DNA from: a candidate division WOR-3 bacterium
GTDB taxonomy: Bacteria > Hydrothermota > Hydrothermia > LBFQ01
Assembly: GCA_015492295.1 (NCBI GenBank)
Contig: WGFI01000094.1
Coordinates: 8,560 to 72,559 of the forward strand
Direction: 5' to 3'
DNA: 64,000 nt
Position numbers and translations under genes: made by a program. A model generated the notes under the pieces. That model ran no database searches. It was not told where the DNA came from and was given only the letters and a program-made list of their open reading frames with translations. Each line of letters begins with the position of its first letter. The stretch's first letter is position 1. Of this stretch, positions 5,952 to 58,369 are shown piece after piece.

Positions 5952-7736
5952 ATGCTTTACTTATTAGTATCCTATACGCATGAGTTTTATATGGTCAGTA
6001 TGAGGGACGGTGTAAGGCTCGCCACTGATGTATATAAACCCACGATATACTTCGGACAACTGCATACGATACTTATTAGAACCCCTTATGACAGAACGGC
6101 TACTGGCCTAAGCTATCTTATTCCTTATATAACCGATATTAAAGGGTACGCGCTTGTGATTCAAAGTCTTAGGGGTTTCAATGGGAGTGAAGGGGAGCCG
6201 TCGGTTTTCAGGACGGATGGGTGGGGGGAGCTTCAAGATGGATACGATGCCGTTCAGTGGATAATATCTCAGCCATGGTCATCCGGCAAGGTTTGCGGTT
6301 CCTGGTTATCCGCTATGGGTATAACGCAGTACCTCCTTTCAGGAACGCTCCACCCAGCGTATAAATGCGCCACACCCATAATAGGAGCGCACAGCATTTA
6401 TCATTATGCGGCTTTTTATGGAGGAGAATTCAGAAAGAACTTGGTTGAGAATTGGCTTTCAGGTCTCGGAGTTCCACACCTGATAGATACGGTCGCCTCC
6501 CATCCCCTTTACGATAGCACTTGGTATATCATGAATCTCAACGAAAGGATTCCGGATGTAAATGTCCCAATGTATCATCTTGCGGGATGGTTTGATATAT
6601 TCCTTGAAAGTCAGATAGAGGCTTTTATCAATTTACAGTTCAATGGGGGTCCTTTGGCGAGAGGAAATCAAAAGATAATAATAGGACCTTGGGGGCATCT
6701 AACCTTCGGACAGACCGTACAGGGAGATTTAATATTCCCATCAAATGCGGCCTTATCGGTCGATGATCTTATGAATATCCTTGGCAGATGGTACGATTAT
6801 TGGCTAAAAGGTGATAATAACGGGGTGATTGACGAGCCTCCTGTAAAATTTTACATAATAGGTATAAATGAGTGGGCCACATCCGACACTTTCCCCCCAA
6901 GGGGGGTATATTATAGGAAATGGTATTTGCATGGCGATGGCTCTTTGAGGCTCAGCCCTCCAACCTCCGACAGTTTTTCCGTATATGTGTATGATCCCAA
7001 CGATCCAACTCCCAGCATAGGAGGAAATGAGATGGATCTTCCAGGTGGGACTGGTCCAAAGGATCAAAGACCTTTGTTATCAAGGAGCGATGTTTTGGTG
7101 TTTCAGAGTGATGTTCTTACGGATACGGTTGTGGTCATAGGTAACATAATCGGTAAATTGTATTTTGAAAGCGATAGATACGATACGGATTTTGTTATAA
7201 GGATAGCGGATGTGTATCCCGATGGAAGAGCGATATTGGTTTCGGATGGCATAATAAAAGCGAGATTCAGATACGGTTTTGATAGGGAGGTTCTTATAAC
7301 CCCCGGACAAATAGATTCGGTTGAGGTGAAGGTCTGGGCAACGGCTTGGGCTTTCCTCCCAGGACACAGGATAATGGTTATAATTTCTTCCGCGAACTAT
7401 CCGAGATTTGAGGCGAATCCCAACAACGGTGGTCCTTTTGTGAGAGATGACACATTCAAACTCGTAGCCACAAATAAAATATATCATTCCCCCCAGTATC
7501 CATCCTACATAAATATTCCTATGTATCCATCCACCGCCGTCAGAGAGATGATAGCAAGGGGTAATAGGAGCGAGATCAAAGTTGAAGGTTCAAGGATCTG
7601 CTCATCCGATTATCACAGTATTTACGATATATCTGGTAGGATGCTTTTTCAAGGGGTTGGGTGTTCAAGGAATTTAAAAGCGGGGGTGTATATGGTGAAA
7701 TTGCGTAAGAGGATACTCAAAGTGATCATAAGATGA
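5952..7736 (+). CDS. CocE/NonD-family hydrolase (S15 X-Pro dipeptidyl-peptidase-like) with T9SS-type C-terminal domain
   Basis: 594 aa. The N-terminal alpha/beta hydrolase has LIRTPYDRT, an S-x-x-G nucleophile region (CGSWLSAMG) and IIGPWGH. The C-terminal roughly 70 aa (YDISGRMLFQGVG...AGVYMVKLRKRILKVIIR) matches the Por-secretion-tail pattern. Confidence 0.65.
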   Translation: MLYLLVSYTHEFYMVSMRDGVRLATDVYKPTIYFGQLHTILIRTPYDRTATGLSYLIPYITDIKGYALVIQSLRGFNGSEGEPSVFRTDGWGELQDGYDAVQWIISQPWSSGKVCGSWLSAMGITQYLLSGTLHPAYKCATPIIGAHSIYHYAAFYGGEFRKNLVENWLSGLGVPHLIDTVASHPLYDSTWYIMNLNERIPDVNVPMYHLAGWFDIFLESQIEAFINLQFNGGPLARGNQKIIIGPWGHLTFGQTVQGDLIFPSNAALSVDDLMNILGRWYDYWLKGDNNGVIDEPPVKFYIIGINEWATSDTFPPRGVYYRKWYLHGDGSLRLSPPTSDSFSVYVYDPNDPTPSIGGNEMDLPGGTGPKDQRPLLSRSDVLVFQSDVLTDTVVVIGNIIGKLYFESDRYDTDFVIRIADVYPDGRAILVSDGIIKARFRYGFDREVLITPGQIDSVEVKVWATAWAFLPGHRIMVIISSANYPRFEANPNNGGPFVRDDTFKLVATNKIYHSPQYPSYINIPMYPSTAVREMIARGNRSEIKVEGSRICSSDYHSIYDISGRMLFQGVGCSRNLKAGVYMVKLRKRILKVIIR

Positions 7737-7876
7737 TATAATCGCCCCTTGCTTTTGTAGTGGGTGGGGATTTAACGCAAAGGGATATTACGCTAGTGGG
7801 GAGACCTTCGGAGATGGTTCTTAGTTTTTAAGTGTAAGGGCAAGATGCAATTTTTACCTCCTTAAAATTCTGGTCT

Positions 7877-9529
7877 ATGTTGGGTAAGGAGGCTTTTCTG
7901 ATAAATCTTTATGTTTTAAACTTTTGGTCGGGCACCGAACCATCGTTGCCGTTGTTCAATATGATGTTCAACGATCCTAACAAGGTTTATAACCTCGCCA
8001 ACTCCATCGCTATGAAGTACAGAAAGGATACTTTAAGAGTCTTTCCTTCATGCGTTTTACTCGCGAAGCTATCCGGAAGCAATATAAGGGCGGGGCTCCT
8101 AAGTGATATATACAAAGAAACCGTAGCCGAGATAACGGGGGATAACCCCTTAGGCAAATTCATATTTGACAGGGAGAGAAAACTATCAAAAGGTTTGCGA
8201 GATTCCTTGCAAATGATACCGAACTATGTACCTACAAAGATAAACCGATTGACCACCGCCCTGCTCAAAGTGTATTTATCCGTAAATATGAAGGTTCCTC
8301 GCCGTCTGAACGCCTATATATGGGATAGCCTTTCACTCAAAGACAAGGAGGAATTTGAAAGGAGTTTCCTTGGGAAAACCGATAAAGAAAGGATTGCCTA
8401 TGCATTTCAGGTTATGTGCGTTCTTTTGGACTCTTTGAGAAGCGTGGTGAATAGATATGGAAGTTCTATGAAGAGCTTCTATCTGAGAACGCCTTATGGA
8501 TATATATCCTTCGGTTCAAAGGACAAGGATAGCTTCCCAAACTCAATAATAGTGATAGATCCAGGAGGGGATGATATTTACGGTGATGTGCGCTTAGGTT
8601 TGGACCTGTCGGGAAACGATATTTACAAGGGAGATGTTGGTTTTGGCTTCTTCGGTATAGGTGGATTCGTAGATGAGGAGGGTAACGATGTCTATAAGGG
8701 TAGCTATATAGGAGCAGGATTCTTGGGATTTGGATTGTTATATGATTTACGAGGAAACGATATATACAAGTGCAAGGTGTTCTGTTTGGGGGCGGGATAC
8801 ATGGGTGGAGGTATGGTTGTCGATAAGGAGGGAAACGACACATATTATGCAATATCAAAGTCTCAGGGTTTTGGATGGGTTGGAGGTGTAGGTATATTGG
8901 TTGATGTTGAAGGGAACGATAATTACGAACTTGAAGATTCGGTTTTGTACTTCCCATCACCACAGAGTCCGAAACATAACACGAGCTTAGGACAAGGTAT
9001 GGGATACGGTGAAAGGAGGGATTTTTATAACGGTAGATCTCTCGGCGGAGGTTTAGGTATCCTCGTTGATGTGAAAGGGGATGATAGATACTATTCAAGC
9101 GTTTTTTCGCAGGGATCCGGGTATTGGTTGGGTGTGGGAGTTCTATATGATGGGGATGGGAACGATGCGTATTCGGGTGTGTGGTATTCCCAAGGGGCGG
9201 CCGCGCATTTTGGAATAGGCGCCTTGTACGACCTTAGGGGGAACGATGTCTATTTATCCCTTCTATCAACCTCGCAAGGTGTGGGACATGATTTTTCTTA
9301 TGGTATTCTCATTGATTTTAATGGTAAGGACACATATACATGTGGGAACCTTTGCCTCGGAAGTGGAAACGCTCAAGGTGTGGGAATATTTTGGGATTTC
9401 GGTGGAGAAATGCGCACAAACCTTAAAGGTAAAGGTCTAGGTGTTGAAAACCCCGCGGTGGATAAAACGAGTTTCAGGTACTCTTTCCCCACGAAAGGTT
9501 TTGTTTGTAAAGGGAAGGCCTGCCCATAA
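7877..9529 (+). CDS. Hypothetical repeat protein (predicted beta-solenoid with about 14 GND-x-Y glycine-rich turns)
   Basis: 550 aa. Residues about 1-230 are non-repetitive. From about residue 230 a roughly 22-aa periodic unit recurs: GxGxxGxGxLxDxxGNDxYxG. Motifs seen are GDDIYGD, GNDIYKG, GNDVYKG, GNDIYKC, GNDTYYA, GNDNYEL, GDDRYYS, GNDAYSG, GNDVYLS and GKDTYTC. No family is recognised from memory. Confidence 0.55.
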   Translation: MLGKEAFLINLYVLNFWSGTEPSLPLFNMMFNDPNKVYNLANSIAMKYRKDTLRVFPSCVLLAKLSGSNIRAGLLSDIYKETVAEITGDNPLGKFIFDRERKLSKGLRDSLQMIPNYVPTKINRLTTALLKVYLSVNMKVPRRLNAYIWDSLSLKDKEEFERSFLGKTDKERIAYAFQVMCVLLDSLRSVVNRYGSSMKSFYLRTPYGYISFGSKDKDSFPNSIIVIDPGGDDIYGDVRLGLDLSGNDIYKGDVGFGFFGIGGFVDEEGNDVYKGSYIGAGFLGFGLLYDLRGNDIYKCKVFCLGAGYMGGGMVVDKEGNDTYYAISKSQGFGWVGGVGILVDVEGNDNYELEDSVLYFPSPQSPKHNTSLGQGMGYGERRDFYNGRSLGGGLGILVDVKGDDRYYSSVFSQGSGYWLGVGVLYDGDGNDAYSGVWYSQGAAAHFGIGALYDLRGNDVYLSLLSTSQGVGHDFSYGILIDFNGKDTYTCGNLCLGSGNAQGVGIFWDFGGEMRTNLKGKGLGVENPAVDKTSFRYSFPTKGFVCKGKACP

Positions 9530-9531
9530 TC

Positions 9532-10827
9532 ATGTATATATGCTCGGTATGCGGTTATAAATCTTTAAAATTCATGGGGAGATGTCCCGAATGCAACGAA
9601 TGGGGAACGATGATTGAGGAGGATAGGAAAAAGGGAAAAAAGTTTGAATCTCTGGAAATTTCCAAGCTTTCCGATGTTGAGGGATACGATAAGGAAAGGT
9701 TGAGTACGGGTATATCCGAGGTTGATAGAGTTTTAGGCGGTGGAATACTCAAAGGCAGCGTTATACTCCTCGGGGGAAGTCCTGGTGTTGGGAAATCAAC
9801 GCTATTCCTACAAATCGCCGGAAAACTTAGGGATCAAGGTCATAATGTTCTCTTAGTATCCTCCGAAGAATCCGTTATGCAGGTGAAGCAGAGAGCGGAT
9901 AGGTTAAAGGTAAATCAGGATATAGATATAACCGATGAAGAAAACTTAGACAAGATTCTCCACAGTTTATCCAAAGATTACGATGTAATATTCTTTGATT
10001 CCATACAGTCGCTATATATGGAGAACCTGAACTCTCCCGCAGGATCAATATCCCAAGTTAGATTCTGTGCAGATAGGATATTCAGATTCGCAAAGGAGAG
10101 AGATATTTCAGTTTGGATCTCGGGTCATATAACGAAGTCAGGTATTATAGCAGGTCCTAAGACCTTGGAACATATAGTGGATGTCGTCATGTATTTGGAA
10201 GGGGACAAAGTTTCTTCTTTGAGAACGCTGAGATGCGAAAAGAACAGGTTCGGCCCCGTGGATGAAATCGCTTTCCTTACGATGAATGAGGATGGACTTA
10301 GACCCATAAATGACCCATCCTACTATTTTGTTTCACCTTCAAAGATCCCAAAAGTCGGTGTAGCATATACGGTTATAACCAAAGGGAGTCTTCCAGTAGT
10401 TATAGAAGTTCAAACCTTGGTGCATCCGACCTTCTATCCCATGCCCCTGAGATATTCCGTAGGTTATGATCAGAAGAAACTGGCCATAATACTCGCTTTA
10501 TTGGAGAAGAAGCTGGGTTATAGGTTGGCCAGGATGGACATATACCTGAATCTCAGCGGAAATTTAAAGTCGGAGGATCCATCAATGGACATGGCCGTAT
10601 GTGCATCTTTAATATCTTCTATCAGAAATATACCTTTGGACAATTCGGGAGTCTTCATAGGGGAGATTTCATTGACCGGGGAATTTAAAAAACCTTTAAA
10701 TTTCAATATACTTGAAGGTGAGGCCAAAAGGGTGGGTTTCAAGAGGATGTATTCCCCCACACCATCGGAACATCTGGATTGGATAAAGATAGAGGATCTA
10801 ATGGAATTAGCGAATTTATTGAGGTAA
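9532..10827 (+). CDS. radA: DNA repair protein RadA (Sms)
   Basis: 431 aa. An N-terminal C4 zinc ribbon (CSVCGYKSLKFMGRCPECNEW) is followed by Walker A GGSPGVGKST, the KNRFG motif and a C-terminal Lon-protease-like domain. The ATG is 3 nt after the upstream stop. Confidence 0.9.
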   Translation: MYICSVCGYKSLKFMGRCPECNEWGTMIEEDRKKGKKFESLEISKLSDVEGYDKERLSTGISEVDRVLGGGILKGSVILLGGSPGVGKSTLFLQIAGKLRDQGHNVLLVSSEESVMQVKQRADRLKVNQDIDITDEENLDKILHSLSKDYDVIFFDSIQSLYMENLNSPAGSISQVRFCADRIFRFAKERDISVWISGHITKSGIIAGPKTLEHIVDVVMYLEGDKVSSLRTLRCEKNRFGPVDEIAFLTMNEDGLRPINDPSYYFVSPSKIPKVGVAYTVITKGSLPVVIEVQTLVHPTFYPMPLRYSVGYDQKKLAIILALLEKKLGYRLARMDIYLNLSGNLKSEDPSMDMAVCASLISSIRNIPLDNSGVFIGEISLTGEFKKPLNFNILEGEAKRVGFKRMYSPTPSEHLDWIKIEDLMELANLLR

Positions 10828-11658
10828 GAGTCTCAGAGCCCTAAGGCTACCCCCAACCACCCTACCCACCCCTATAAATCTATTTTCCGCATAAACCCTG
10901 TAAGTGCCTTCCTCGGCACCTACATATACCGTCCCACCATTTTTAAAAATCTTTGCATATTTACCATATAGGTTTATATCGTTCATCCAGTACAAACCTT
11001 TTTCCGCGGGAAGAATATCATCTTCCGTAATTTCTTCGGGAGGTTTCGCTTCATTTACCGTTATCTTACCTATTTCAATCCTCTTCAAACTTTCAAGATA
11101 ACCCACGGTTCCAAGTTTATACGCTATATCCCTTCCCAATGCTCTTATATATGTTCCCGATGAAACTCTGCACCTGAACCTTATTCTATTATCCAAAACT
11201 TCCAAAACTTTAATGTTTTCAATATATACCTTTCTCGGTTTCAGTTCGGGGTTCTTACCTTCCCTCGCGAGTTCGTAAGCCCTTTTTCCTTCTATTTTTA
11301 AAGCGGAATAAATCGGAGGAATCTGCTCATAAACCCCTATGAAACCCCTTACGACATTTTCAACCGTGATTATATCCAACCTTGGAACATCCTTTTTTCT
11401 TATAACTTTCCCTTCAACATCCAATGTATCCGTTTCCTCACCCATAAAGAGCACCGCCTCGTATGTCCTTAGAAGTTCTTGAAAGAATCTTAAAAATCTG
11501 GTGTATCTGCCCAAGGCGATTATGAGTAATCCCTCCGCGAAAGGATCAAGCGTTCCCTCATATCCTCCCTTCACTTTAAACTTCCGTTGTATATCATTCA
11601 TAACGCCGCGTGAGGTTCTTCCCGCAGGTTTATATACCCAGAGAAAACCCTCCTTCAT
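10816..11658 (-). CDS. truB: tRNA pseudouridine(55) synthase TruB
   Basis: 280 aa. The TruB catalytic motif GTLDPFAEGLL with Asp lies in a GxLDxxAxG context. It is followed by a PUA-like C-terminus. It overlaps the radA stop convergently by 12 nt. Confidence 0.85.
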   Translation of the reverse strand: MKEGFLWVYKPAGRTSRGVMNDIQRKFKVKGGYEGTLDPFAEGLLIIALGRYTRFLRFFQELLRTYEAVLFMGEETDTLDVEGKVIRKKDVPRLDIITVENVVRGFIGVYEQIPPIYSALKIEGKRAYELAREGKNPELKPRKVYIENIKVLEVLDNRIRFRCRVSSGTYIRALGRDIAYKLGTVGYLESLKRIEIGKITVNEAKPPEEITEDDILPAEKGLYWMNDINLYGKYAKIFKNGGTVYVGAEEGTYRVYAENRFIGVGRVVGGSLRALRLLPQ

Positions 11659-42687: not shown

Positions 42688-42771
42688 TGCCGGGGGCGGG
42701 ACTTGAACCCGCACGGGCCAAAGCCCACTAGGTCCTGAACCTAGCGCGTCTGCCAATTCCGCCACCCCGGC
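42688..42771 (-). tRNA. tRNA-Leu (anticodon CAG), type II with long variable arm
   Basis: The reverse complement is GCCGGGGTGGCGGAATTGGCAGACGCGCTAGGTTCAGGACCTAGTGGGCTTTGGCCCGTGCGGGTTCAAGTCCCGCCCCCGGCA. It has a perfect 7-bp acceptor stem, anticodon loop TTCAGGA, a variable stem-loop GGGC-TTTG-GCCC and T-loop TTCAAGT. CCA is not encoded. Confidence 0.85.
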
Positions 42772-58295: not shown

Positions 58296-58369
58296 CGCGT
58301 CCGGCGGGACTTGAACCCGCGACCTTCGGCTCCGGAGGCCGACGCTCTATCCTGCTGAGCTACGGACGC
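58296..58369 (-). tRNA. tRNA-Arg (anticodon CCG)
   Basis: The reverse complement is GCGTCCGTAGCTCAGCAGGATAGAGCGTCGGCCTCCGGAGCCGAAGGTCGCGGGTTCAAGTCCCGCCGGACGCG, 74 nt. It has a perfect 7-bp acceptor stem, anticodon loop CTCCGGA and T-loop TTCAAGT. Confidence 0.85.

Follow-up and report, generated by a model that had tools for sequence, protein, structure and literature searches.

In a 64,000-nucleotide window from a candidate division WOR-3 bacterium (assembly GCA_015492295.1, contig WGFI01000094.1, positions 8,560 to 72,559), we characterized the protein of 550 amino acids (aa) encoded directly upstream of radA, at 7877..9529 of the window on the forward (+) strand. The protein belongs to a large bacterial family that has no name and joins a helical domain to a coiled beta-solenoid; this family is real and unannotated. 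The explanation that we favor, with somewhat better than even confidence, is that the solenoid is a Ca2+-roll scaffold located in the cell envelope and carrying a ligand-binding or catalytic site.

The open reading frame list gave exactly the coordinates, the ATG start, and the length of the original prediction. The complete coding sequence is also supported by a database entry (P0001) with 100% identity to the product and by the homologues. An in-frame TAA lies 13 codons 5' of the ATG, and ATG, GTG, and TTG are all absent in between; therefore, the N-terminus cannot be longer, and a longer N-terminus hiding a signal peptide is excluded. A Shine-Dalgarno sequence was not evident ahead of the ATG in the 140-nucleotide (nt) intergenic region upstream (7737-7876), nor did this region contain a promoter-like match on the + strand. 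Scanning for promoters and terminators was uninformative.

The periodic G-N-D-x-Y turns, which had been noticed in the translation, were confirmed by shuffling. The motif G-[N/D/K]-D-x-[Y/I] occurs ten times in the C-terminal 336 aa (at aa 230, 246, 269, 293, 319, 346, 401, 428, 455, and 483), whereas 20,000 shuffles of this segment gave a mean of 0.14 motifs and a maximum of 3. About 14 copies with a period of about 22 aa had been claimed; we counted ten motif copies and one degenerate eleventh coil. The spacings between the motifs were 16, 23, 24, 26, 27, 55, 27, 27, and 28, and the Gly and Asp autocorrelation of the C-terminal part peaked at 27 and 55, giving a period of about 23-28 residues. 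The Gly content was 20.6% in the C-terminal part versus 4.9% in the N-terminal part. The gene has no tandem repeats at the DNA level; hence, the protein repeat is old and diverged.

For structure prediction, an alignment of 42 homologues from several phyla with a mean identity of about 33% (A1) was submitted to AlphaFold2. The result was a very confident beta-solenoid model, with a mean predicted local distance difference test score (pLDDT) of 95.2, a predicted template modeling score (pTM) of 0.95, and 0 residues below a pLDDT of 70. An all-helical domain (aa 1-197; 7877..8467, +) is followed by two short strands, by a beta-solenoid of 11 coils (aa ~201-516; 8477..9424, +), and by a short C-terminal cap (aa 517-550; 9425..9526, +; A1 columns 901-1000) with C-K-G-K-A-C-P as the last residues. 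The N-terminal region is thus helical as predicted, although shorter than the proposed 230 aa or so. The coil length grows from 16 to 29 residues, and each coil, ending at the motif Tyr, comprises a Q-G corner, a short strand, G-x-G, a strand h-h-h-D, the turn x-x-G-N-D, and a strand x-Y. A 28-residue insert is located within coil 7. Foldseek returned no match against the PDB at E<=1e-3, with weak matches to CyaA block V, the PrtC protease, and the MIS38 lipase. In the model, the poorly conserved N-terminal helical domain is novel, without a known fold relative. The earlier idea of a novel beta-solenoid was largely right, with the 11-coil solenoid predicted and no curated library matching it.

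The family is large. More than 2,616 matches were found in the 90%-clustered protein database, all named "hypothetical protein", and 4,399 clusters at 50% identity (2,576 of them with E<=1e-30), nearly all with 600-700 aa and spanning the whole profile. At least 514 GTDB species representatives carry loci of the family. The best 80 loci, nearly all labeled as metagenome-assembled genomes (MAGs), belonged to WOR-3, Ca. Caldipriscus, Ca. Hydrothermus, Stahlbacteria, Zixibacteria, Eisenbacteria, Ignavibacteria, Armatimonadota/Fimbriimonadales, Caldisericota, Planctomycetota, and Acidobacteriota. The 550-aa protein sits in a tight clade of 550-aa proteins with 60-72% identity from WOR-3-type MAGs, some of them mislabeled as Thermotogota. 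The window holds a single copy; a second paralogue within 8 kb was seen in a few loci, with 82 members counted across 75 loci and relative positions ranging from -6 to +3. The absence of an assignable known family, as originally stated, was upheld, because Pfam and PDB sequence searches gave no meaningful match. Pfam searches with the window protein, 42 members, and 10 long members were empty or returned noise, as did NCBIfam searches with the window protein and 42 members, and no extra Pfam domain was found in the extensions of the 750-975-aa members. The window protein and two full-length homologues had no matches in PHROGs and PADLOC, the libraries consulted for phage tailspike and defense-system proteins. 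For the motif or the family, the literature search yielded background on RTX and MpIBP only.

Across 255 members, the family signature was D-x-x-G-[N/D]-D-x-Y (N 42%, D 39%, Tyr 95%), with a median of 11 copies per protein, a modal spacing of 27, and a spacing across the insert coil that is constant at 55. The most conserved columns of A1 were both Asp and the Gly of each D-x-x-G-x-D turn, invariant or nearly so in the 42 sequences. The window protein carries ten D-x-x-G-[N/D/K]-D-x-Y turns, one per coil (aa 228-487; 8558..9337, +), and the motif positions, their conservation, and the comparison with RTX and MpIBP (PMC6891781) point to a predicted Ca2+-binding edge. By analogy with these rolls, the turns probably bind Ca2+.

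Besides this scaffold motif, the invariant and near-invariant residues cluster in two places, the coil-7 insert and the Q-G corners of coils 8-11. The conserved non-repeat insert (aa 355-392, FPSPQSPKHNTSLGQGMGYGERRDF...; 8939..9052, +), delimited by A1 and by the 55-residue spacing kept family-wide, follows the pattern F-P-S-x-Q-S-x-x-H-N-x-S-L-A-Q-G-x-G-F-G-x-R-A-D-F; in A1, Q363, N368, Q373, and R380 are invariant, and H367, S370, and D382 are conserved at >=90%. In the Q-G corner register of coils 8-11, the invariant or near-invariant positions are F410, Q412, Y416, and W417; W436, Y437, Q439, H444, and F445; H471 (conserved at >=90%) and D472; and N498. From the A1 columns and the register-aligned conservation map, the positions near the corner in coils 8-10 (9104..9292, +), namely the invariant F410, Q412, Y416, W417, W436, Y437, H444, and D472 together with H471, were marked as a candidate ligand or active site. 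Equivalent positions of successive solenoid coils are ~4.8 A apart; according to the coil register, the conserved residues of the insert and the corners should therefore form one continuous strip. This predicted strip of His, Asp, Arg, Asn, and aromatic residues, which persists across phyla while the protein architecture stays fixed, resembles an active site or a specific binding site more than the surface of an adhesin.

With respect to location, most 620-700-aa members start with a Sec-type signal (e.g. MKRLILVIAISLFPTLVASQD), and some with a lipobox. A crude hydrophobicity test found a strongly hydrophobic N-terminus in 181 of 217 full-length members and lipobox-like sites in 16. The 550-aa clade starts ~30-40 residues later, aligned in A1 to the mature part of the longer members, lacks the last 1-2 coils of these homologues, and has no recognizable signal peptide. 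Every cysteine of this WOR-3 clade (13 members, P0001-P0013) belongs to a conserved pair: C59/C181, C489/C493, and C544/C549 are strictly conserved in all 13, and C299/C303 are gained or lost together, with both in 7 sequences and neither in 6. This pairing suggests disulfides despite the missing signal peptide. Thus, the proposal of a probably cytoplasmic protein without a signal peptide was correct about the signal, but its cytoplasmic location is not safe. Folding of RTX-type rolls is believed to require surroundings rich in Ca2+ (PMC6891781). Sec signals or lipoboxes in most members, together with the folding of Ca2+-dependent rolls outside the cytoplasm, make the periplasm or the cell surface the most likely place of action of the family.

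In the proposed mechanism, the novel helical domain would cap a right-handed beta-solenoid, one edge of which would be the stack of D-x-x-G-[N/D]-D-x-Y turns. As in the one-sided RTX-like roll of the Marinomonas ice-binding adhesin, about 9-10 Ca2+ would sit in a row along these turns, with the invariant Asp residues as bridges between them. Rigidity of the fold would come from the Ca2+, and the invariant Tyr residues would line up as a ladder beside the row. On this scaffold, coils 7-11 would present the 28-residue insert and the invariant His, Asp, Arg, Asn, Gln, Trp, and Tyr, and the presented residues would make up a ligand-binding or catalytic site. The family would act at the cell surface or in the periplasm. 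Because of the beta-helix scaffold and the predicted export, the target is probably an envelope glycan or polymer, although this assignment is weakly supported, by a generic fold likeness to PL6, AlgG, GH110, and tailspikes and by one neighboring lytic transglycosylase.

A non-catalytic alternative, to which we give a minor but appreciable probability, is a Ca2+-stiffened scaffold or adhesin-like protein of the surface or periplasm that does no more than bind a partner, with the conserved patch as a protein-protein or protein-glycan interface. Adhesins are usually fast-evolving and variable in length, whereas this family keeps one architecture and many invariant His, Asp, and Arg across distant phyla, a pattern more in keeping with enzymes or with a fixed housekeeping partner. 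The invariant His and Asp could instead bind a transition metal in a periplasmic metal-binding or metal-delivery beta-helix, broadly NosD-like; we regard this as unlikely, since the likeness to NosD is generic (10% identity), neither the NosD nor the Beta_helix model of Pfam matched, and no metal-related genes recur nearby. Still far less credible, with almost no probability assigned, is an identity as a canonical RTX protein exported through a type I secretion system (T1SS) or as a left-handed hexapeptide-repeat (LbH) acyltransferase. The canonical GGxGxDxU motif, counted by regular expression in the 255 members, had a median of 0 and a maximum of 1 per protein, and HemolysinCabind (PF00353) gave no match at E<=1 with the window protein or at E<=0.1 with the 42 members. 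RTX proteins carry a C-terminal uncleaved T1SS signal, whereas the homologues carry N-terminal Sec-like signals, and no T1SS-type genes (ABC/MFP export) recur as neighbors in the 76 species loci surveyed. The hexapeptide transferase, a left-handed triangular helix of [LIV]-G-x4 repeats, was rejected, in line with the original prediction, because Hexapep had no match at E<=1 and LpxD superposed only at a root-mean-square deviation (rmsd) of 12-14 A. A bactofilin identity was also rejected.

The Ca2+-roll scaffold in the envelope had also to be weighed against a cytoplasmic protein working with RadA in DNA repair or recombination. The TAA stop of the 550-aa gene is at 9527-9529 and the radA ATG at 9532, so that 2 nt intervene rather than the 3 first given; the product of radA (9532..10827, +) has Zn-ribbon, KaiC/RecA-like ATPase, and ChlI/Lon-like C-terminal matches. 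Because of this short gap and the absence of a terminator in between, co-transcription in this WOR-3 genome is plausible, as had been proposed, but it says nothing about function. The lack of a signal peptide in the 550-aa clade would fit a RadA partner, and so would ruvB, located just upstream or two genes upstream in two related genomes. For the neighbor survey, open reading frames were called and clustered in the 76 species loci, and six homologue contigs were inspected. Conservation upstream of radA, proposed as a check, was absent: radA adjoined the homologue in none of 10 close relatives and appeared in only 2 of the 76 loci, both at +3 and both in Caldisericota. No neighbor family occurred in more than 10 of the 76 loci, and positions were scattered; the commonest, a lone ABC ATPase, reached 10. 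Moreover, most homologues are predicted to be exported, and family-library searches found no DNA-binding or nuclease signature in the protein. The missing conserved linkage largely refutes the RadA partnership, which we consider very improbable, and the link of the 550-aa gene to radA is accidental.

The recurrent neighbors (ABC ATPase, prepilin-like protein, SDR, membrane glycosyltransferase-like protein, EamA, GlnA, HAD, RimP, and ProS) reflect within-lineage synteny of housekeeping genes and are not partners. The 72% identical relative has P-II upstream and inositol-1-phosphate synthase downstream; the 65% relative has an overlapping ruvB upstream, and a hypothetical gene and RNase HII downstream; in the 60% relative, the gene is preceded by Lon and a hypothetical gene; and more distant members adjoin a lytic transglycosylase, URO-D, or GlnA. 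In WOR-3/Caldipriscus genomes (loci L001/L002 5228-6004, L008 3759-4706, L014, and L016), ruvB lies directly upstream with a 4-nt overlap or two genes upstream. The recurrence of recombination genes (ruvB, radA) near homologues is probably inherited synteny and coincidence. In one WOR-3 locus (L005 7943-10090 / L006 6839-8986), a 715-aa soluble lytic transglycosylase (SLT and superhelical domain) overlaps the homologue 3' end by 11 nt, with DAP epimerase and UDP-glucose dehydrogenase upstream; this was the sole envelope-related context seen.

Within the window, radA (+, ending at 10827) and truB (-, 10816..11658) are convergent genes with a 12-nt overlap of their 3' ends (10816-10827). The gene upstream of the 550-aa gene (5952-7736, +) encodes an S15 X-Pro dipeptidyl-peptidase (Peptidase_S15 and PepX_C) with no obvious signal peptide at the called N-terminus. 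About 74 residues extend beyond its PepX_C match, and this tail (…GVYMVKLRKRILKVIIR) resembles a type IX secretion C-terminal sorting domain. The sole Rfam gathering-level matches in the window were two tRNA genes, at 42688-42771 (-) and 58296-58369 (-). For the window itself, the radA neighborhood is uninformative on function.

Thousands of proteins belong to the family, most of them from phyla that are little studied and largely uncultured; neither Pfam nor NCBIfam has a model for it, no structure has been solved, and our search found no literature on it. The new repeat geometry for calcium-type rolls seen in the confident model is of interest to the design of repeat proteins and to the question of how RTX-like folds evolved, and the invariant polar patch is a concrete, testable site. 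In the most far-reaching version, which is possible although we would not expect it, a Ca2+-type beta-roll of a new type, with 27-residue coils and a Tyr ladder, would be fused to a helical domain of new fold and carry a new kind of active site (His/Asp/Arg on the roll plus the fixed insert) acting on an envelope polymer. The unrecognized, phylum-spanning family, with the 550-aa protein as its founding example, would then be a new enzyme class, whose thermophilic WOR-3 branch lost the signal peptide and last coils and may be cytoplasmic. A role as a cell-envelope enzyme, if real, would close a gap in the annotation of many candidate phyla.

Among known systems, carbohydrate-active enzymes with a right-handed parallel beta-helix, such as PL6 alginate/chondroitin lyases, the AlgG C5-epimerase, GH110, and phage tailspike depolymerases have a generic likeness to the model at 5-9% identity; however, their coils carry no repeated sequence motif, unlike those of the family, and none of the Pfam models of such enzymes (Beta_helix, NosD, Pectate_lyase_3, PL6, GH28 class) match it, nor were their catalytic motifs identified in it. 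The canonical RTX repeat is XUXGGXGXD, in which a six-residue turn binds Ca2+ via carbonyls and the Asp bridges neighboring ions (PMC6891781). Canonical RTX beta-rolls (PF00353; alkaline protease, CyaA block V) and the family have in common Gly/Asp-rich turns ending in Asp-x-U, and Asp-bridged Ca2+ stacked along the turn is the likely common principle; in contrast, the canonical roll has two Ca edges, the family one putative edge, and the nonapeptide tandem with two repeats per 18-residue coil is absent in the family.

Region IV of MpIBP is a non-canonical roll with 19-residue coils (XGTGND-XUXU-GGXUXG-XUX) and Ca2+ along one edge only (PMC6891781). The continuous right-handed roll of our model superposes on this region (MpAFP/MpIBP RIV, PDB 3P4G), although no sequence match to any PDB chain, including 3P4G, was obtained with the single protein, the solenoid alone, or the profile. 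The 19-residue repeat of MpIBP was not found, the family coil having 23-28 residues with a mode of 27. The MpIBP turn is x-G-T-G-N-D-x-U, and that of the family D-x-x-G-N-D-x-Y; the G-N-D-x-U core is common to the family, MpIBP, and RTX, but the family turn lacks the leading glycines, has an extra invariant Asp closing the preceding strand, and belongs to a much wider coil. Region IV is a module of a 1.5-MDa T1SS adhesin, whereas the family proteins stand alone with ~550-650 aa, a helical N-domain, and a conserved insert. The flat Thr/Asx ice-binding face of MpIBP is absent in the 550-aa protein, and an antifreeze function was rejected on this ground and because the closest relatives bear names of hydrothermal or hot-spring style (Caldipriscus, Hydrothermus; names only). 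Accordingly, the statement that the repeat is not RTX was right for the canonical repeat, whereas the shared core argues against treating it as unrelated to RTX-like rolls. In our reading, based on this analogy, the solenoid is a third geometry of the calcium-roll principle, with one putative metal edge, three-sided coils of 27 residues, and a Tyr ladder.
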